From Somniosus microcephalus (lineage: Eukaryota), in assembly GCA_052327205.1 (NCBI GenBank), contig CM126220.1:27900001-27964000 (forward strand): DNA of 64,000 nt, in the 5' to 3' direction. The notes under the pieces were generated by a model. That model did no database searches and was not told the DNA's origin. It worked only from the letters and a program-made list of their open reading frames with translations. Of the stretch, positions 3,480 through 33,538 are shown one piece after another. Position 1 is the first letter of the stretch. Every line of letters starts with the position of its first letter. The translations under genes and the position numbers were made by a program.

Positions 3480-4135
3480 CAAAAAGAGAATTCCCTTTTG
3501 ATACCTTTCAATTCCACCTATGTGCCATCTGACTATATCCCTCATTCTACTCTCTCTCCAGAAGCAGGTCTAATGGCCTCTTGAACCAACTGACAATATT
3601 CACTTCAGTGGTCTTCCCAGATAACTGAAGTGAATAGTGTTATTGGGTTAGAGATAGTGGTCTTCCTGGGTAACTTATTCCATACTTCTATTATCCATTG
3701 TGTAAAACTGTTTCACCTAGTTGTTGTTCTTATCCTAACTTACTACTTTTTAACTTGTGTCCTTGACAAGCAAACCCTTTACCAAAGTGAAGAATTTACA
3801 GAAATACCTTTTCTTAGTTCTTCGCATATTGTTTAAAATCTAAATTTGGTTATCTTAAATTATTTTTCCAAAGAGAATAAGGCCAACATCCTTAACCTTC
3901 CTTTGAAATTAGATTCCTGATACAATCACCTTAATTTCTCACCACTGTCCTCTCTGAAGGGTAACAGTATCCATCCTACGGTTAGGTGCCAAGAAATGCA
4001 CACTACACCAGATTTGATCAAAGCTTTAGACAATAACAAAGCCCTCAATAATCTCTTTAGTTTTGTGCTCTAGCCCTCTGCTAATGCAACCAGTACCTCA
4101 TGTAGTGTTGATCATTGGTGGTTTGGTTACTTGTT
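3480..4135 (-). mobile_element. Old CR1 LINE fragment
   Basis: Degenerate antisense match to the CR1 3' ORF2 region seen in the younger copies in this window. Confidence 0.55.
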
Positions 4136-5029: not shown

Positions 5030-6630
5030 AAGAGAGTAAAAGCAGAAAATGCTGGAAATGCACAACAGGTCTGTCAGCATTGAAAACAAACATTATAGCT
5101 TAACATTTCAGATGGGACCCTTTATCAAAACTGAAAAATAAAAGCAAGAAAGCCCCTTTATGGAATCAACTAAAACAAAGAAGTGGAGAATAAAAGGTCA
5201 AGAGTACAGGGGGAAAATTTGGTTGATTTGCGCCTCCCATTAGCGCCCAGGGCGCTAACGGGGGGCGCAAAGCAACTAGCGCCCGGGCACGGCGCCGCCA
5301 ACGCCTCCCGTGAAATTCAACGGGAGGTTAGCGGCGGCGGTAACCGTTAGTGCCCCGCGGTGCTGCACCACCGGCGATGACATCATCACCGTGCACAGTG
5401 ACCAGCTCACGCCCCGGCCGCGATCTTTGGTAGCGCCCCCCTGACTTACTGCCGGACGATATGTCCGACAGGGTCGGGGGGGCCCTACCTACGGCCGGGG
5501 CGGCGCAAATTAAAGGGGAGGTGCCAGCCGGTCATTTTTGTTGCTGGCCGTCTGCTAGCATCTGCCCCCATTGCTGTCCCCGGCCTTCTGTGCAGCCCCC
5601 CCCGCAGGGTGCCGGCTGCGCTCCGTGAGCCCGGCACATCCCTTGAGTGCCGGGCTCGTTTGCTGGCACTCTGATCTCTGGTGGCCCAGCTGGGCCCTGG
5701 GTCACGCTGCGCAAGGCCCCTCCCCTTTAATAAGGGGAGGAATGCCTGCAGTACAGCGGCGCGACCTGCCCTAGAGTGCCCCACCTCCCTCTTGGGCGCT
5801 ACCAATGAATTTCGGGTGCGGGGTTGCTAAAAGTAGCACCCCGGTAAAGGTGGCACCCCAAAGGGGGCACGACCCAATTTTTCCCCCAAGATACTCTAAC
5901 CTCAAAATGGCAGCTAATGGGTTTACTAGCCAGTAAGAAATCATTTAAAGTGGAAAGAGGTGAAAAGTGTTGGATGATGTACATGGGTCATATCAGTCAG
6001 TCTGTGAAAAGGCATTAGAGAGACTTACAGTTGAATGAAACAGCTTTAGAAGGGAACTTGATGGAATGTTAATGGGAGCAACTGACAGAAAAATCTAGGA
6101 GAGACCCAAGGTTTGTGGTTGCTAAATTCAGTGTTCAGATCCAAAGCTGGAGAATGTCCAGGAGGAAGCTGAAATACTGGGTGTAAATTTCCTAGTGGTG
6201 GTGGTGGGGAACGCTGCCCAATGTCATCAAATCACAGGCGCATTCCCCACAGTTTTCCGATTTGTGTTGGTGGAGGGCAAGGTTCTCCATCATGAGCACG
6301 CGCTCAGAAAATTACCTCCGCTGTTGTTGCAGTTTTGGATTGAGCTTGGTTGGAGTAGCGTAGGTGCAGGAGGTCAAACAGCAAAAAATCAGATTGCAAG
6401 TGGGAGCAGTAGATGAAGTCGAAGGTCCCGGGGAGGTCAAGCTTACGTTGTGGATAGAAGAGATTTTAGACAAAGCATTCACCCAATCTGCATTTGGGTC
6501 TCTGCAATATGGAGGAAACTGCACGAAGCAGCAAATACAAAATACTAGATTGCAAGAAGAATTTGTAAAGCACTGCTCACGCGGAATGTGTTTGGGGCCT
6601 TGGACGTTGATGTGGGAGGACGACAATTAA
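5030..6630 (-). mobile_element. Penelope-like element remnant (GIY-YIG region plus terminal repeat), interrupted by MITEs
   Basis: Minus ORF 6312-6626 contains VQGPKH...FTNSSCNLVFCICC, matching the Penelope GIY-YIG motif FTC.S.NLVYCI.C. Region 5030-5135 matches the terminal repeat at 16426-16560 and carries a degenerate hammerhead. Confidence 0.72.
5209..5887. mobile_element. GC-rich PIF/Harbinger-like MITE, copy 1
   Basis: TIRs gggggaaaatttggttg / cgacccaatttttccccc; many internal palindromes; colinear with 29952-30813. Confidence 0.75.
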
Positions 6631-8029
6631 TATATGTTGCACCTGCTGTCATAAAAAAGGAAGGCTCTGCCAGGGCGTTCTTCCACAGAACACAGGACAA
6701 CAGTAAAACGAAGAGGAGGACATCCCCACCTTTAAACCCCTGGACCTTTCAAGGAGAAGGCCATGGAGCTAGTGATAACTTACTCAGCTCCTGCCATTAG
6801 AGATGGCAAGGTTGGTGGCGTCTTGCCAGGTTAGTGACTGAGCATCTACACTGTTGCCCCGGCCTCCCTATGAAGCACCGCACAGGCATAAATTTCCATC
6901 CCCTTTCTCTGCCTCCTTAATCCCAGAGGGGTAGTGCGTACTCATTCGTAGCTTCAACCCTCCTTTCCTGCTGATCCTCCACAGCAGGGGAGAGGGGTGA
7001 GGTGGCATGGGAGCAGGCAGATAATAATGATGAGGAGGAGGAAGAGCTGGGGAGATATTTCTCCCTTTGTTGCATATGACAATGACAAGGATGAGGAAGG
7101 GGAGAATGAGACCCAGGACACTTTCCCCGTGCAATTGCTTCACCCTGTCCTGTCTTCCTCTGCCACAAGCCCTGCAAACTCACCATCTGCAAAAAAGTTT
7201 CAAAGAGCGTTTGCAAGTGGCGGAACTCACGATATAAAGTTTACAGACTCTTCACGTTCCGAAACTCCTCATTTCTGCCTTGACAAGGCGATCGTGACAG
7301 TTGCTGCACCTCATTTACCCAGAGTACAACACCAGTGCAAATCCAGGAAACTCAAAGAGCTGCCACACCACTGGCTCTCACTCTTAAATATGCAAATGAG
7401 GCCAGTGGCTCCCCAGTGGACAGATTGTGACAAGGCTTAAAAAGCACAAGGAAATTCGGTGGAGGCGTTTTAAAGGTGCAGACATGGCTTCCACTGAAAT
7501 TTCCTTGCAAAAAAAAAAATCCTACGCGTAAACTATACCGAAAACACAGAAAAAATTCGCCCTCAATGCATTCAGAACAGACGAGAAAAAATTGAAAGAA
7601 AAAAAGGTGCAATCAATATTGAGAGCTGCATCTGAAATAGGGGTAATTGGCATTAATGTTGGATCAGTAACTGCAATGTGGTAGTTTTATTAGTAACATT
7701 ACTCCACATGGGACAATCCAGGACTAGAGTCTATATGCCCACTCTCCACCACATTCAGCAAGTTTCTCTCGATGTGTTTTAACTTGGTTGCAGACTCTCG
7801 TTTCCAGTCTTTTCCAGATCTATGGTGAAGTTCTGGTTTGTGATTGGCAATAGGAGCCTGGCTCGGAAACCACTGGAGTAGAGCTGATGTGTGCTTTGTC
7901 TGCAGGGTCACGCTCGCAGCTGCTGGCACTGGGAGAGCTGATGCAGGCACTCTTCAAATCTCTCTGCTCTAAACCCAAACAATGTGGGCACCCGATGAAT
8001 CTGAAAGCTAATGAAATAATTCTACCCGC

Positions 8030-8770: not shown

Positions 8771-8868
8771 GATGGACGGCAAACCATTCAGAGCTCAGCA
8801 GAGTGAGGCCTGGGAGATGTTAACACCTGGGCCTTATCTGCACAGCACCTGTCGGCTTCCTGCACAAA

Positions 8869-9244
8869 TAGGGTAGCCAAGCCTCCAGGATTGCCCCGGA
8901 GTCACCAGGAATTGATGATTAATCTCTAGGACACTGCTGCCAGTAATCCCGGAGAGAAATCCGACAGGGGCATTCAACAAAATTGTGGGTTTTTCCATTT
9001 TCTTTGAATATTTCATTTGTTAGTTATAAAAATATTGGAGATGGGTAAAAACATGGCTGTTTTACCCAGCAGTCGAGATGAATCCAATTCGGTAACAAAG
9101 TCTGCTCCCTTTCCAACTGGCGTGGGAAGGCAGTGCTGCTGGAGCAGGGACCAATGGTGGGCATGTAGGGGCGGGGTGCTTCGTGGCAAGAGGTTCACGT
9201 GACGAAACCTCCAGGGATACACCCAACCAGAGTTGGCAACCCGA
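8869..9244. mobile_element. MITE with TAGGGTTGCCAAC-type ends, copy 2 (crybb2 intron 1)
   Basis: tagggtagccaa ... gttggcaacccga; homologous to 240-618. Confidence 0.7.
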
Positions 9245-10423: not shown

Positions 10424-11183
10424 GGGGAAGCTGGGGTTGTTCTCCTTAGAGCAGAGAAGGTAATGAGGAGATTTGATAGAGGTGTTCAAAGTCATGAAGG
10501 GTTTTGATGGAGTAAATAAGGAGAAACTGTTTCCAGTGGCAGAAGGGTCAGTAACCAGAGGGCACAGATTTAAGGTGATTGGCAAAAGAACCAGAGGCGA
10601 CACGAGGAAACATTTTTTACACAGCGAGTTGTGATCTGGAATGCACTGCCTGAAAGCAGATTCAATAGTAACATTCAAAAGAGAATCGGATAAATACTTG
10701 AAGGGAAAACATTTACAGGGCTACAGGGAAAGAGCAGGGGAGTGGGATTAATTGGATAGCTCTACCAAAGAACATAGGAACAGGAGTAGGCCATTTAGCC
10801 CCTCGAGTCTGCTCCACCATCCAATGAGATCATGGCTGATCTGCGACCTAACTCCACATATCCGCCTTTGGCCCATATCACTTAATACTTTTGGTTAACA
10901 AAAATCTATCAATCTCAGATTTAAAATTAACAATTGATCTAGCATCAATTGCAGTTTGCGGAAGAGAGTTCCAAACTTCTACCACCCTTTGTGTGTAGAA
11001 GTGTTTCCTAATCTCACTCCTGAAAGGACTGGCTCTAATTTTTAGACTATGCCCCCTAGTCCTAGACTCTCCAACCAGCAGAAATAGTTTCTCTCTATCG
11101 ACCCTATCTGTTTCCTTTAAGAGTCGGCACAGGCACGATTGGCCGAATGGCCTCCTTCTGAGCTGTATCATTCTATGATTCTA
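10424..11183 (+). mobile_element. CR1 3' fragment (+) interrupted by an antisense CR1 3' fragment (about 10771-11117)
   Basis: Host reads ...gatagctctaccaaaga|...|aagagtcggcacagg...ttctatgattcta. The insert translates on the minus strand as VDREKLF..VGESRTRGHSLKIR. Confidence 0.85.
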
Positions 11184-24764: not shown

Positions 24765-25235
24765 CCTGTGGCAAAGCACCTTAACAATCCTCTATGTAAA
24801 GAACTTTCTCCTAACTGCTCTACTCATTTTCTTAGTGATAATTTAAAATTGATGAACCCCTTGTTGCAGACGACCCAACCAGAATAAAGAGCCTTTCACT
24901 ATTTACTATCAAAGCTCTTCATAATTTTAAAAATCTCCATTAAATCTCCGCTTAGCCTTCTCTCCTGCAATGAACATTGTCCTATTATCTCAAGTCTCTC
25001 TTCAGTACTACAGTATCCCAATCCCTAGCATCATCCTGGTGAATCAATGTAATATGTGCCCCCTCGTTTGAGACCCCCCAGCCTGGGGAAACATCCTCCC
25101 TGCACCCAGTCTGTCTAGCCCTGTCAGAATTCTATACGTTTCAATGAGATCCCCTCTCATTCTTCTGAACTCTAGTGAATACAGGCCCGAAATTGCACAA
25201 TGTACCCTAACTCTGCCCTAACCAATGTTTTATAA
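24765..25235 (-). mobile_element. Old CR1 fragment containing a 133-bp patch of younger CR1 (25055-25187)
   Basis: Degenerate antisense CR1 flanks; the central patch is about 92% identical to 26912-27044. Confidence 0.7.
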
Positions 25236-26485: not shown

Positions 26486-26615
26486 TATATCTTGATATAT
26501 GTGTATAATGTCTGTCATGAGAAGCACTAATCTGTTGATTGCAGCTGTCTGTAACAGAATCTTGTCACACTCAGGTCTCTTTGAAGCATCCTGAATCTTC
26601 TTGTTTTCAGAAGGC

Positions 26616-27306
26616 TATAGAAATATAGAACATAGAAAAATAGGAGCAGGAGTAGGCCATTTGGCCCTTCGAACCCGCTCCACCATTCAATATGATCATG
26701 GCTGATCCTCTATCTCAATACCATATTCCCGCTCTCTCCTCATACCCCTTGATGCCTCTTGTGTCTAGAAATCTATCTATCTCCTTCTTAAATATATTCA
26801 GTGACTTGGCCTCCACAGCCTTCTGTGGTAGAGAATTCCACAGGTTCCACCTCTGAGTGAAGAAATTTCTCCTCATCTCAGTCCTAAATGTCCTACCCTG
26901 TATCCTGAGACTGTGCCCCCTCATTCTAGACCTCCCAGCCAGGGGAAACATCCGCCCTGCACCCAGTCTGTCTAGCCCTGTCAGAATTTTATACATTTCA
27001 ATGAGATCCCCTCTCATTCTTCTAAACTCTAGTGAATAAAGGCCTAGTCGACCCAACCTCTCCTCATACGACAGTCCTGCCATCCCAGGAATCAGTCTGG
27101 TGAACCTTCGCTGCACTCCCTCTGTGGCAAGTATATCCTTTCTTAGGTAAGGAGACCAAAACTGCACACAGTACTCCAGGTGTGGTCTCACCAAGACCCT
27201 GTATAACTGTAGTAAGACATCCTTGCTCCTGTACTCAAATCCTCTTGCAATGAAGGCCAACATACCATTTGCCTTCCTAACTGCTTGCTGCACCAGCATG
27301 TTTGCC
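26616..27306 (-). mobile_element. Young CR1 LINE 3' fragment
   Basis: Minus ORF 26715-27353 (QQAVRKANGMLAFIARG...RPHLEYCVQFWSP) with (catagaaa)n tail. Confidence 0.92.
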
Positions 27307-27630
27307 ATTTCCCAAACCAAATTGTTAAATGCACTAGAGCATGCTTTATTCACTGCCTCTGAAGGAGTAGTACTAGTCCTACACCGCAGCTGTGGGCAGT
27401 AATCCCTCCGATATTATGGTTCTCCAATCATCAACATGTTAGGCCACAATATATAATAGAAACGAATTTGCAGTGAATTCTAAGCAGAGGTCACATTCCT
27501 ATTCCCTTGCCGATACTGGTATTCTCGACATGTATAGGCAGGGTAGACTGCAATCACACTTTTACACGGACCTCCAATCCGATCCTCCTTCTGTTCACAT
27601 ACCTGTGGGACAGAGACTGATTATTGAGTC

Positions 27631-27890
27631 TGATGTGCCTCAATGAATCCGAGACTCGACGTTAACGGAGCAAAGCAAGGCTTTTATTAACTCAGAAAGT
27701 AATGCACATTGGAGAAGTGTCTCTCATCCAGAGATCTGCTGTACTGCTGTGAGACACGCTGGGGCTTGCTTAAGTAGGGGCCAGGTATGGGCGGAGCCCT
27801 ACACACAATACAATACAGGTAAGGAAATGAAACTGAAACTAAACTAAACACAGGGAATACAGTGCCTGATGAATGGCATATTTCATCACG
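27631..27890 (-). mobile_element. Solo LTR, 260 bp (Gypsy/BEL-like)
   Basis: 5-bp TSD GAGTC (27626-27630 / 27891-27895); ends TGATG...CATCACG; minus-strand AATAAA at 27688-27683, GC box at 27789-27796, TATA-like TACTTAAG. Confidence 0.7.
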
Positions 27891-28000
27891 GAGTCCATCT
27901 CTCCAGCTGAGCTAGGGGGAGGCAAAAGCAGCAAGGTTGGGGATGAGCTGAAGCAATTTGGAAAGAATATAATTTAGAAATCTGCATTTTTATAGAAGTA

Positions 28001-28080
28001 CAGGAAACTCTTTTTTATCCGGCACCAACGGGACCGGCGTGGTGCCAGTTGATCAAAAAGTCCGGATTACAGAGAGGTAT
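28001..28080. mobile_element. Possible pogo/Tigger-like terminal fragment
   Basis: TA followed by CAGGAAACTCTTTTTTATCCGGCACC, with internal inverted ggtgcc...ccggattacagagag. Confidence 0.4.
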
Positions 28081-28101
28081 ACTTACTAAGGTACGAGAGC
28101 C

Positions 28102-28260
28102 CCGTACACGGCCACAGGTGCAGGAGTCCCGGTTACACGGCCACAGATCCAGGAGTCCCGGTTACACGGCCACAGATCCAGGAGTCCCGGTTACACGGCC
28201 ACAGATCCAGGAGTCCCGGTTACACGGCCACAGATCCAGGAACCCCGGTTACACGGCCAC
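28102..28260 (+). repeat. 29-bp minisatellite, about 5.5 copies
   Basis: ggttacacggccacagatccaggagtccc starting at 28131, 28160, 28189, 28218 and 28247 (partial), with a degenerate first unit. Confidence 0.95.
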
Positions 28261-28477
28261 TAATACAGTACACCCTTTCCATTTCAACAAATAAAATAAA
28301 AACCTACTTCTCCATAAAACCGGCACAATCTTTAACAAATAGGGCCTGGCAATTTTTGTTTCTGTTGTTTGCCAAACACTGCAATAAAATTTATGCCAAA
28401 AGGTGTCACTGCACTGCAGCAGTTGAAGATGAGATATGACAGTTTTAGGTGCTGTTGGATGCCTTTTTGAATGTGTA

Positions 28478-28912
28478 AAAAAGAAAAAAAAGACTTGCAT
28501 TTATGTAGCGCCTTTCGTGACCACCAAACATTTCAAAGCATTTTACAGCCAGTGAAGTACTTTTTGAAGTGTAGTCACTGTTGTAGTGTAGGAAACGCGG
28601 CAGCCAATTTGCGCACAGCAAGCTCCCACATGGGCTTGTGCTGTCTTAGCTGATCTCAGGCAGCATCAGCAGCTGGGGGCACTACAATAGGCCCAAAGGG
28701 AGGGGGAATTTCAGCCAGACTTCCTGCTTCTGATCACTAACCAATGATAATGACCAGATAATCTGTTTTAGTGATGTTGATTGAGGGATAAATATTGGCC
28801 AGGACACCGGGGAGAACTCCCCTGCTCTTCTTCAAAATAGTGGCATGGGATCTTTTAGGTCCACCTGAGAGAGCAGATGGGATCTCGGTTTAACTTCTCA
28901 CCCAAAAACAGC
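28478..28912 (-). mobile_element. DeuSINE (5'-truncated) carrying a 113-bp foreign insert at 28633-28745
   Basis: Antisense Deu domain and tail; the insert duplicates 29001-29113. Confidence 0.85.
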
Positions 28913-28919
28913 TGAAATC

Positions 28920-29865
28920 TCTCCTCATGGCTCAGTGGGTGAAGGCATTGCCTCGTGTGGTACTGAGCCATTCAGATCACACAGTGCAGGTTCAATTCCT
29001 GGCTTGTGCTGTCTTAGCTGATCTCAGGCAGCATCAGCAGCTGGGGGCACTACAATAGGCCCAAGGGGAGGGGGGATTTCAGCCAGGCTTCCTGCTTCTG
29101 ATCACTAACCAATAATTTCTGCTGGAAATTGGAGATTGCTGGCTATTGACACTCAGGCCTGGATTTTCCTCTTGGAGTTTCAGCAGGGTGGAACTCCTGA
29201 CGGTCCTTCCATGTCTACCCCAGTGCAAAGCCCACTTTCCTGGCTGGGGCTTATTAAATATGTACACTGAGCTCCCGATGAGATTTCTGTTGCCCAGAGG
29301 GAGTCTGCCAGTGGGCAGAGCAGAAACCTGTCGCTGCAGCACCAGAAGATCCATCGAGGAACCTTAAAGGGGCAGAAGCGCCCCGAAGATTGGAATAAAG
29401 ACTCCCACTGAGGGTCTTGACCAAGAAGTTAAGTTTCTGGGGCCAGCTGGAGGGGGAGGAGTCTGCTACAAAGCCATCTCCCTCCGATTGGGTATTTACT
29501 GCCATCTCCCAGGGCCCAGGAAGCAGTGGTGGAAAGCAGGAAAATCCTCCGGGACCCCAGGCCTCACCCATCCCATCACCATTTGCATGCAGTGGGCAGG
29601 AAGGAGCGGGCAGCGGTGATCCCAGCAGGGGCGGGGGAGGGAAATCCTGGTTGGGCGGTGAGGTGTCAGTAGGCCTCACCTCCTGAATTTTCCGATGTTC
29701 TCCGTTGTATCCCGTCTGATGTTACGGTGGAGAATTTCCTCCTTCTGTGTAGGATTACCTGATTAATAGCTGCCTGAGCAAGTTAACAGTGGTGCTGCCA
29801 AAACCATACCTCAGTAAGGAGTCAGCCCATACAGGAGAGGAGGGTAAGGGAGGGGGAGAAAAACA
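28920..29865 (+). mobile_element. SINE-X copy split by a GC-rich MITE-like insert (about 29156-29740)
   Basis: tRNA-like head ctcatggctcagtggg...ggttcaattcctgg; the SINE 3' part resumes near 29745. Confidence 0.6.
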
Positions 29866-29951
29866 GAAGAAATAAATGAAAACCAGGTATAGAAGCAGTT
29901 AACAACAGCATTGAGCTATATAAATTATTTTCATCCAATTGTAAAATGTAT

Positions 29952-30813
29952 GGGGCAAAAATTCTGTTGCTTTATGCCTCCTGTTAGTGCCCTAAGAGGG
30001 CACTAATGGGGTGCAAAGCAACTAGCGCCCAGGTACGGCGCTGCCAGCGCCTCCCGCGAAATTCAGCGGGAGGTTAGCAGCGGCGGTAACCGTTAGTGCC
30101 CCACAGCACTGCGCCGCCGGCAATGAGGTCATCGCCGTGTGCAGCACCCCGCTTGCGCCCCCTGACTTACCACTGGACGTTATGTCCGATGGGGTCAGGA
30201 GGGCCTACCTGCGGCTGGGGCGGCGCTAATTACAGGCGAAGTGCCAGGCAGCCATTTTTGTTGCTGGCCGCCTGCCAGCACCTGCCCCCGTTGCCGTCCC
30301 CGGCCTCCTGAGCAGCCCCACCCCGCGGATTGCCGGCTGCGCTCCGTGAGCCCGGCACTCGAGAGGAGTGCCGGGCTCTTTTACCAGCACACCGATCCCT
30401 GGTGGCCCAGCTGTGGTCTCACCAAGGCCCTGTACAACTGTAGTAAGACATCCTTGCTCCTGTACTCAAATCCTCTTGCAATGAAGGCCAACATACCATT
30501 TGCCTTCCTAACTGCTTGCTGCACCTGCATGTTTGCCATTCCCCAAACCAAATTGTTTAATGCACGAGAGCATGCTTTATTCACTGCGCAAGGCCCCTCC
30601 CCTTTAAGAAGGGGAGGAAGGCCTGTAGTAGCGCCGCGATATTCCCTCGCCTTGCCCCAAGAGGGAGGCGGGGCGCTTCCAGTAGCGCCCTGCTTCTCTC
30701 TTGGGGCGCTACCGATGAATTTCGACCGTGGGGCGCTAATTTTTCCAGGGCGCTGAAAGTAGCGCCCCGGCGAAGTTAGCGCCCCAAAGAGGGCGTGACT
30801 CAATTTTTCCCCC
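29952..30813. mobile_element. PIF/Harbinger-like MITE, copy 2, with a captured 176-bp segment
   Basis: TIRs ggggcaaaaatt / aatttttccccc; 3-bp TSD TAT (29949-29951 / 30814-30816); homologous to 5209-5887. Confidence 0.8.
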
Positions 30814-33538
30814 TATGAGTTTTGCTTGTTCAATACCACGTTTGGTTTTTGGGGCTCCTGTCATGATATGATTTTTATTTACATCTGATTCAGCAGCTGT
30901 TTGATGTAACAGATCATTTAAGAATGTCTTGTGCTTCCTGTTGAGTTTCATTGTACAGGGTACTACCAAATGTCAAGCATTTGTTAACAGCCGCGTTAGA
31001 TGCAAATTATTACCAATCACTAACCGGCTGATTGAGGAATTAGGAAAAGAACACAAATAAATCATTCGGCTTGGAGCCACCCACATTCTGCATGTTTGCA
31101 AGTAGCTGTTCATGTGTTTTGAGGAAACACATTCAGAAGTATGTGTTAGATACAGGACATTGCCGTCTGTTCATAACCCATTACAACAGGAAAATAAGCC
31201 TGCTTTGAAGGACCTTTATGATCACACTGTGTACATCCATCAAGAATGGATACAAGATCACTGTATGTACTCCAAATACTTTGCTATACTTGCTCTTCCT
31301 CCTTCTTGATAAAATGAAGACTAATGGTAATGTCTTATACTGTACTCTCAGGACCTTAGAACTGTGGAACTTCTGACCTCTTCATTTTTCCCTTCCTCCT
31401 CGGCTTTGAAAACCCAATGTTTCTGTCATCTAATCACTGGATTAATCTTCTATTCTTTCCAACCTTGGTGGTGCCCTACACTGTGGACCTTGGTCTTTTC
31501 AATGAAGGTTCTCAATTTAAAAAAAAGGTCTGATGGAAACAGGAGATGTTCTCCACTCAGCAGAGTGGTAGTGATTGAGAACAGTTTCATTCTGATGGGT
31601 AAGCCCCAAACAACTCTGAGCAGCTGGCTCAGATCGCCACTAAGGGATACCCATGAGCAAATAACCCCCTGCTATCCCTTTGGCCACAGTTGATACTTGG
31701 CTTGAGAACACCAAGAAAGCTATCTTCTCTCAAATAAGAAAAATAAAATTAGATGATCTCTGTGCATTTGATCCTTTGTAATGCCTCTCTAGCCTGCAAC
31801 ACTGACTTTTTTGTGTTCATCTAAATGAGGGATGTCAATTCTGGGGAATCAAATGTTTTTTACTATCAACATCCAGTGTCAGCATCAAGCACTCACAGGC
31901 CAGGGATAGCAAGGGCTAGAAGCTGATCAAAGCTAAGCCACTACTCTGCTCAAACAATTTGCTTCAGCCCCAAATCAGAAAAAACAACCTCGACTGTGCA
32001 ATTTGACATTTCCAGTTCCCACCAAAAGCCACCCTTTGACCTAGTTGTGTAGAATGCCAACTTGCCATCATTTAGTATCGAATTAGGGTCAGTTTTATGC
32101 AATGCTTGAGATAATCCTAACTCACTTCACCAACATCCCTTACCTTGGCAAAGAGGAAACATTATCTCAGCAGCATAGGCTGGTTTCAAGCCTAGTTCCC
32201 ATAGAAAAGAAAGAAAGATAATGTTCAAAGTGACAAAGTCCTCTCTGTTGAGACCATTTATATAGCTTGTTAAAGTGAAAAGACTTGCATTTATATAGCG
32301 CCTTTCACAACCACCAGATGTCCCAAAGCACTTTACAGCCAATTAAGTACTTTTTGAAGTGTAGCCACTGCTGTAATGTAGGAAGTAAAGTGATGAATTT
32401 TATAATTCACAAAGCCTTTTAATGCTCGGAGCTTTCTTCAATGTATAAACTATTTAACAGCTAATAAATGACTGTACAAATGTAATATAATCTAGCTCAG
32501 TATTAGAGTATATTGCAGCAAGTGTCAAGTTTCTAAATGAAGTTGAAGACAAGCATTTAAAAGAGATCCTGAATATGGTAAGAACTCAAACATTTTGATG
32601 GATCCGCCATCATTTTTATTACTTGTTGACAGTTATATTTAAAGAAGGAACCATGGATATAATTTGTGTTTAAACAGAATAGACATTAAATCCATTTACA
32701 CAAGCTTTTAGGGAAATCAATCACTGCTAGCTTCACAACGTTCCTCAGGCTAATGTTTAAAGCAGTTATAGAAGGAGGAGGCTTCAACCCCTGTAGCGCA
32801 GAGGGTGGGACTAAGATAAAGAGGGATAGTACCTCTTGTTTGATTTGGCGTAGTTTGCTGAAGTTCTTTATATTTGTGGACTCCTTTTGTCTCTGGTCTA
32901 TCACCAGCAGGACCATTTTGATTCATTGTGAAGGATACCATTAATACTCCATTGTGCCACCAGGAGATCAAAGAACAGAAATACAAATAACCAACCTGGC
33001 ACTCCATGGTCTTCACTTTCCCATTTTGCTTTGCAGTTACATGAGTTGGGTCGTATAGGGGTTCTGAGAGATTAATTTCTCCTGTAATTTTTTTTTATAA
33101 ATTAAGATCTCATGTTCAAAATGTCTTGAAGAGAGCTGATAACTCAAACTCCTTTATTTGTTTTGGAAGCAGGGTATAAAGTTTAGCTAAGTACTGTATT
33201 TGTTATGTTTACCTGATGATTAGGGCTTGCTTCTGTATAATTTTACTTCTTAATAAATTCAAATGGCTAGATTTTAGCTTCAGCTAAGTGGTCTGACAGT
33301 GTGGTATTTTGCACCAGTTTGGAGAGACCTAGAGCACACATTGCGAGTGGGTAGTTCATATTATTTCTGATGAGTACTCCAAAGGTAGAAGAGTTCATTG
33401 GTCACTCTGTGGCCACACTATCCTAGATATTTTGCACATAAGATCAAGATTCAATTCAGAGTGGCCTGTGGAAGCTGACTTTCGTGAATTGTATAAATAA
33501 AGAGCATTGGGAAATATCCCAAATTGTAACATACTCCT

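Follow-up and report, generated by a model that had tools for sequence, protein, structure and literature searches.

Nearby DNA in an old Harbinger-like MITE of Somniosus microcephalus: a locus-specific patch probably written by germline repair

When a transposon contains a piece of the DNA that lies beside it, did the element acquire that piece through its own activity, or was it simply the place where a break happened to be mended? A locus in the Somniosus microcephalus assembly GCA_052327205.1 raises this question. In a 64,000-nucleotide stretch of contig CM126220.1 (positions 27,900,001 to 27,964,000 of the forward strand), which we call the window and whose first letter is position 1 of the coordinates used here, a Harbinger-like MITE holds a segment that is also found upstream. 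An earlier note on this DNA saw in it a sequence capture by a TIR element, and we have followed that reading from the copied segment to its host, its junctions, its age, and its place among similar scars.

Comparison of the window with itself reproduced the match described in the earlier note: the segment at 30412-30587 (plus strand) is a gapless, same-strand copy of 27181-27356 (plus strand), identical at 170 of 176 positions (96.6%) and offset by 3231 bp. The donor consists of 125 bp of CR1 and 51 bp of single-copy flank; the copy is CR1-derived up to 30536 and flank-derived from 30537, and CR1 makes up 71% of the cargo (125/176 bp). The CR1-type LINE fragment itself (26614-27305, minus strand) is 5'-truncated, comprises the ORF2 C-terminus and tail, extends further left past the donor start, and shares 92-96% identity with the majority of the family copies nearest to it. 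The clade of this fragment is our assumption from motifs, the open frame reading like the C-terminus of CR1 ORF2; a Pfam scan of that frame gave no match. The note had the copy crossing the truncation point at about 27306 and running some 50 bp into flank, and the boundary does fall at 27305|27306: all 24 of the other best CR1 loci fetched diverge from the donor at 27306, and beyond it donor and copy stay alike for 51 bp.

A search of the 6.45-Gb assembly with 27300-27400 returned exactly two hits from two candidates, the outcome that the earlier note had named as support for local templating, and the flank is thus no part of a high-copy CR1 subfamily or composite repeat. A 25-mer across the chimeric junction on the left has a single occurrence when at most one mismatch is tolerated, and the right junction query is covered in full at its own locus only, 39 of the 40 scored hits being the MITE part alone. 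The patch is therefore a locus-specific copy of 27181-27356; that it came from the donor locus and not from CR1 RNA, as proposed, is borne out by the two genome hits of the 51-bp flank and by the divergence of the 24 CR1 loci. Donor and copy differ by six substitutions, three of them in the single-copy part, and the polarity of the change is readable at just one or two of the six sites. At 27295 the donor changed after copying, the family base being present in the copy and in 23 of the 24 CR1 loci. A two-template origin was considered, since at two bases the copy agrees with CR1 copies elsewhere in the window; the closest two unselected CR1 copies share one of these, and the idea was rejected because two donor changes and one copy change account for the three sites.

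The host of the patch is a non-autonomous TIR element at 29952-30813 (no strand assigned), of a family whose majority sequence is 747 bp long. It is flanked on both sides by a 3-bp TAT target duplication (29949-29951 and 30814-30816, plus strand), as the note had claimed, and the claim of intact TIRs needs qualifying: they are just 12 bp long, the left (29952-29963, plus strand) agreeing with the right at 11 of 12 bases, with one change, and the right (30802-30813, minus strand) being identical to the family majority. A sister MITE at 5209-5887 (no strand assigned) lacks the cargo and represents the empty site; its own target duplication is degenerate, with no match between the sides. For comparison we used 78 other family copies, each with 10 kb around it, found by searches anchored beside the break site, which for that reason under-sample copies altered there. 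Among the end-to-end alignments of these copies, the 3-bp flanks agree completely in 38 of 78 and with no more than one mismatch in 53 of 78, the commonest triplets being TAA, TAT, TTA, and ATA; a 3-bp target duplication is given as the Harbinger hallmark in passages of PMC9179366.

The label "Harbinger-like" is reasonable, not proven, and is suggested by sequence features that agree with the superfamily in part. PIF/Harbinger TIRs are usually 25-50 bp, whereas this family has a perfect TIR of 12 bp that is weak beyond; transposase-bearing elements in this genome also end in short TIRs. A genome search for PF13359 (DDE_Tnp_4) gave 96,622 first-look candidates, of which 150 were scored. PIF/Harbinger MITEs share their ends with an autonomous element that encodes a transposase together with a Myb-like protein, whereas here the similarity of the ends is limited: the 12-bp ends of 3.55-kb DDE_Tnp_4 elements match the MITE majority end at 8 of 12 bases and a variant MITE end, carried by 8 of the 78 copies, at 10 of 12. 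No internal homology to the 3.55-kb elements and no direct parent emerged from 30 short loci and 6 long ones, and since the MITE shares no internal sequence with the transposase-bearing elements, no parent element was identified. Seven family-like loci per 864 kb of unselected DNA, two of the seven in the window, suggest by rough estimate tens of thousands of copies in the genome.

Several further features of the family and its presumed relatives deserve record. The expansion of Harbinger-type transposases appears very large, with many of the top PF13359 hits sitting in 386-aa open frames, and one locus of the L264-L269 set, L269, holds a MITE related to the focal family within such a 3.55-kb element. 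The family is GC-rich and rich in internal palindromes, its left end comes in two variants, and its deletion ends concentrate near positions 25-75 and 675-725, within subterminal repeats.

The cargo has not spread and exists in this element as a single copy. None of the 78 other copies carries cargo from within 5 kb; their large inserts are nested insertions, a 232-bp dispersed repeat in L137 and, in L148, a 606-bp CR1 together with an LTR element (L148:419-4784), and the remaining length differences reflect length variants of the family or ends that were misaligned. L148 at first resembled another local capture (290 bp, 99.7%), but the pair proved to be the two LTRs of the element nested in the MITE.

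At the junctions, 168 bp (30414-30581) are unambiguously new DNA in the MITE. The spacer between the two flanking matches is 12 bases in 72 of 79 MITE copies, 11 in one, and deleted in six, so the patch put 168 new bases in place of 12 bp; the replacement that the earlier note saw against the sister MITE stands, and its size of about 14 bp does not. The note's microhomologies are likewise present at both ends, the right one with its length revised: on the left, 30407-30413 (plus strand) shares six of seven bases with donor 27176-27182, and on the right, 30582-30587 (plus strand) comprises six bases, not four, common to the family of the MITE and to donor 27351-27356. Among 200,000 placements made at random, the left match arose at a frequency of 0.0007 and the right at 0.0012, and both together not once. 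The MITE sequence resumes in register on either side of the patch, which has neither a LINE tail nor a target duplication, as first observed. The matches at both ends support microhomology-guided templated synthesis from the donor, the core of the earlier reading. On the left, the break falls within a 14-bp family palindrome situated between two hairpins. A fragile site at this palindrome was considered and set aside, deletion ends not being enriched there: in 79 copies, a sample biased by the search anchor beside the site, we counted 2 + 2 ends in the 25-bp bin against up to 33 elsewhere.

Divergence indicates that the MITE is likely older than its patch. Of 534 non-CpG sites in the focal MITE, 30 depart from the family majority (5.6%, a value that rests on one family majority sequence and that subfamilies may inflate), and the closest relatives of this MITE among the compared copies are at most 89% alike over at least 150 bases. 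Between copy and donor, 6 of 176 sites are different (3.4%, 95% interval 1.3-7.3%), or 6/352 per lineage, a lower rate than 30/534 (Fisher p = 0.005). Both MITE ends occur at the same site in contigs of two other organisms (M and A), whose flanks are 4.8-5.7% diverged, and the CR1/flank junction is present in the contigs of organism M. In the same contigs of M and A, a segment at about 27626-28266 of the window is missing or replaced, its start resembling the LTR end seen in L148; it reads as a younger insertion in the present lineage.

To see whether such patches belong to TIR elements at all, one has to look at other repeats. Our census covered 159 sequences (1,644,000 bases) and collected local non-tandem pairs of 30-1500 bp, at least 88% alike and less than 9 kb apart; its 225 pairs reduced to 51 that were locus-specific and to four that interrupted a dispersed repeat, an interruption requiring at least three family copies to bridge the site. 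The focal patch passes the interruption test but was removed by the locus-specific filter through its mostly CR1 cargo, so repeat-derived patches are under-counted in the census. The four further scars measure 58, 104, 106, and 113 bp, have donors 0.4-1.1 kb off, and show one full-length genome partner per donor. One of them lies in the window, 1.7 kb from the focal patch: 28633-28745 (plus strand) matches 29001-29113 (plus strand), 368 bp away, at 110 of 113 positions and splits a SINE-like repeat at about 28476-28912, and its donor is matched in full length at just two places, itself and the patch. The others, each with two genome hits, are L195:2553-2656 (donor 1720-1823), L196:4727-4832 (donor 3649-3754), and L116:6689-6746 (donor 7369-7426). 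Taken together, the five strict scars are all direct, span 58-176 bp, have donors 0.4-3.2 kb away, and replaced 9-21 bp of their hosts.

From motifs we take the hosts of the four further scars to be two copies of a SINE-like repeat (in the window and L196), a CR1-type tail (L195), and a LINE-like repeat (L116). Because all four hosts are SINE- or LINE-like, the transposon has the look of a bystander, and single-copy "capture" here needs no TIR property. The proposal that we are seeing a transposon-specific first step of Pack-type capture is accordingly not upheld: the patch is probably younger than the MITE, is single-copy, and has four counterparts in non-TIR repeats. In 60 kb of other MITE sequence there were no scars, against 0.40 expected at the rate of four per 602 kb of non-MITE repeat, a comparison with little statistical power. 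Among the remaining 47 locus-specific pairs are LTR pairs, TIR pairs, and local duplications, and about fifteen more may be patches lying in single-copy DNA; the interruption test cannot read the direction of these. One more pair in the window, 25055-25187 and 26912-27044 (92.5%), was tried as a patch and failed the locus-specific and interrupted-repeat tests.

Four other structures were encountered on the way. L187:5854-6112 and 6271-6536 carry a 165-bp direct and then a 63-bp inverted copy of adjacent DNA, resembling a multi-switch event; L197:7221-7489 and 8833-9101 form a 269-bp local duplicate (99.3%) in non-repeat DNA just past the scar cluster described below; a 58-bp local duplicate in L095 (8126-8269 and 9569-9626) is also one arm of a hairpin and may be a fold-back template switch; and at 10770-11115 of the window a CR1 3' fragment, whose ends show duplication of a short motif, sits within another LINE tail (10651-11183).

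We consider it very probable that a 168-bp copy from 3.2 kb upstream replaced 12 bp in an old MITE, likely in one germline repair event well after insertion. A break or stalled fork would have opened inside the MITE, and its left end would have annealed to the nearby donor by the six-of-seven-base match. Extension by about 170 bases would then have run over the CR1/flank junction, and the new end would have annealed back to the right MITE side by the six-base match with the loss of 12 bp. By analogy with single-copy Pack-TIRs, the patch would represent transposition-independent gap filling through template switching, and the MITE is likely to be merely where the break fell. The length of the patch and the distance of its donor suit synthesis-dependent repair of a strand-invasion type better than they suit end joining by polymerase theta in its classical form.

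Polymerase theta, which the earlier note had named alongside template switching, nonetheless has features on its side. Its templated insertions (TINS) also accompany short deletions and, in the portions of PMC7165422 considered, have second microhomologies that exceed the first, much like the weak left and longer right match seen here. According to the same portions, a template usually lies no more than 30 bp away, primary tracts seldom exceed 10 bp, and distal templates account for less than 0.1% of repair; 168 bp drawn from a donor at 3231 bp is so weak a fit to such a scale (~30 bp, ~10 bp) that we regard this enzyme's classical pathway as very improbable. Somewhat less improbable, though still unlikely, is an RNA-templated repair insert (class 2 TSIP), in which a host transcript over the CR1/flank junction was reverse-transcribed to mend the MITE break. 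Such a transcript might span the junction, which therefore excludes CR1's own RNA only, and the class 2 inserts described in the excerpts of PMC5110952, of 73-414 bp in cell lines, combine microdeletion and microhomology with the absence of a target duplication and poly(A). Their templates are described there as distant, whereas all five strict scars have direct donors 0.4-3.2 kb away.

Two further readings would change what the locus means. If the MITE had been the active agent, the cargo would have been captured during transposition or post-excision repair, as in Pack-MULE-like or FoSTeST models; the retention of both ends and the TAT duplication, the very many DDE_Tnp_4 copies in the genome, some with long open frames, and the position of the break in a 14-bp palindrome flanked by two hairpins would all suit this account. 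We nevertheless hold it to be highly unlikely: the patch is single-copy and seemingly younger than the element, the gap is internal and of 12 bp only, the donor lies beside the final insertion site, the 79 copies of our biased sample reveal no deletion hot spot there, and like scars occur in non-TIR repeats. An assembly artefact, or a larger local duplication later trimmed by deletions, is hardly credible. No piece crosses either copy junction among those listed from four runs (repeat-rich unitigs), which leaves room for an artefact; against it stand the six substitutions between the copies, three of them in the single-copy part, a window free of N letters, a MITE that continues in register, and four like events elsewhere. 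Templated repair of a break within an old MITE thus remains our preferred reading, and the event is real, well resolved, and ordinary.

The distribution of the strict scars raises a separate possibility. Four of the five lie within 60 kb (C19:27.929-27.989 Mb), and there were none in the next 200 kb of C19 and none in 400 kb of arbitrary stretches. With the focal scar left out, 11% of the repeat bases hold three of four (p = 0.005), and with the whole window left out, 9% hold two of three (p = 0.023); given very small counts and a 60-kb interval defined post hoc, the clustering is a lead only. The divergence intervals of the two window patches overlap (1.3-7.3% for the focal patch, 0.6-7.6% for 28633-28745). 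That local copy-and-patch repair has a narrow hot spot here in the germline, whether a fragile domain or one multi-step event that wrote several patches, is a tentative idea that we think doubtful. If it were true, slowly decaying repeats would provide a dated map of break-repair hot spots in this genome.

Within the window, a scan of 15 long frames found no host gene, the Pfam match being to one LINE reverse transcriptase alone, and no tRNA gene was found. No function is implied for the cargo, since it is non-coding, mostly LINE, and unmoved. The value of the locus lies elsewhere: it is a clean example of a dead transposon gaining neighboring DNA in which direction, microhomologies, and lost bases can all be read. 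In our literature search, which covered subscription journals thinly, we found no survey of a shark genome for scars of this sort, and the control offered by ours, the same scars in SINE- and LINE-like repeats, was not found in the parts of the Pack-TIR paper (PMC8277862) considered here.

Such captures are already known for vertebrate Harbinger elements, as the consulted sections of that paper attest. Tan et al. 2021 reported 370 Pack-TIRs in 100 animal genomes, 56.9% of them within 15 kb of their parent and mostly less than 5 kb away; microhomology was present in 67.6%, the gap had a median of 4.6% of the element, and capture followed transposition. The gap of the focal MITE is 12/747, or 1.6%. 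Their Supplementary Data 1, in the entries seen, tabulates 21 PIF-Harbinger Pack-TIRs from frogs and alligator, 15 with a same-sequence parent at no more than 15 kb, which corrects the earlier note's view that vertebrate Harbinger MITEs are rarely described in this role. The elephant shark, the sole cartilaginous-fish entry found there, has no Pack-TIRs and no annotated PIF-Harbinger.

Among known systems, multicopy Pack elements such as the rice Pack-MULEs and Drosophila Ssk-FB4, as outlined in the same sections of PMC8277862, resemble the focal MITE in being TIR elements with foreign DNA; unlike them, it shows no post-capture transposition, holds no gene fragment, and has its donor in cis. 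Cargo copies at several sites with different target duplications, the mark of Pack-MULE and FoSTeST elements, are absent. The class 2 TSIPs share with the focal patch an insert of 50-400 bp at a break, a microdeletion, microhomology, and the lack of target duplication and poly(A), but in the excerpts of PMC5110952 they are polymorphic and have a distant template, proposed to be RNA, whereas the focal template lies 3.2 kb away in cis. TINS, as characterized in those portions of PMC7165422, are likewise direct-repeat copies of DNA from the flanks, in which a short match primes synthesis and another match closes the join; the focal patch is about ten times longer and its template about a hundred times more distant than is typical of them.

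The closest counterparts are the single-copy Pack-TIRs, including the Pack-Harbingers VI_XL, Harbinger-N31_Gav, and Harbinger-N3_XT, which the consulted text of PMC8277862 presents as non-autonomous elements with both ends, like the focal MITE, and whose general form, a cargo of 100-5000 bp with a parent less than 5 kb away, microhomology, a small internal gap, and capture after insertion, the focal patch shares. Its cargo is flanked on each side by a part of the same TIR element, each end spanning 10 bp or more of the terminus; it is 168-176 bp long, 96.6% identical, and gapless (100-5000 bp, at least 90% identity, and 80-120% of the length being required); and it has a unique best parent, which rests on the 51-bp flank carried by the donor alone. 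The Pack-TIR filter, as set out in that text, also wants non-TE cargo and no TE within 100 bp of the parent, whereas here 71% of the cargo is CR1 and the parent adjoins a TE; for this reason, the case would be excluded by the filter of Tan et al. The focal patch works like a single-copy Pack-TIR, although it would not be filed as one.
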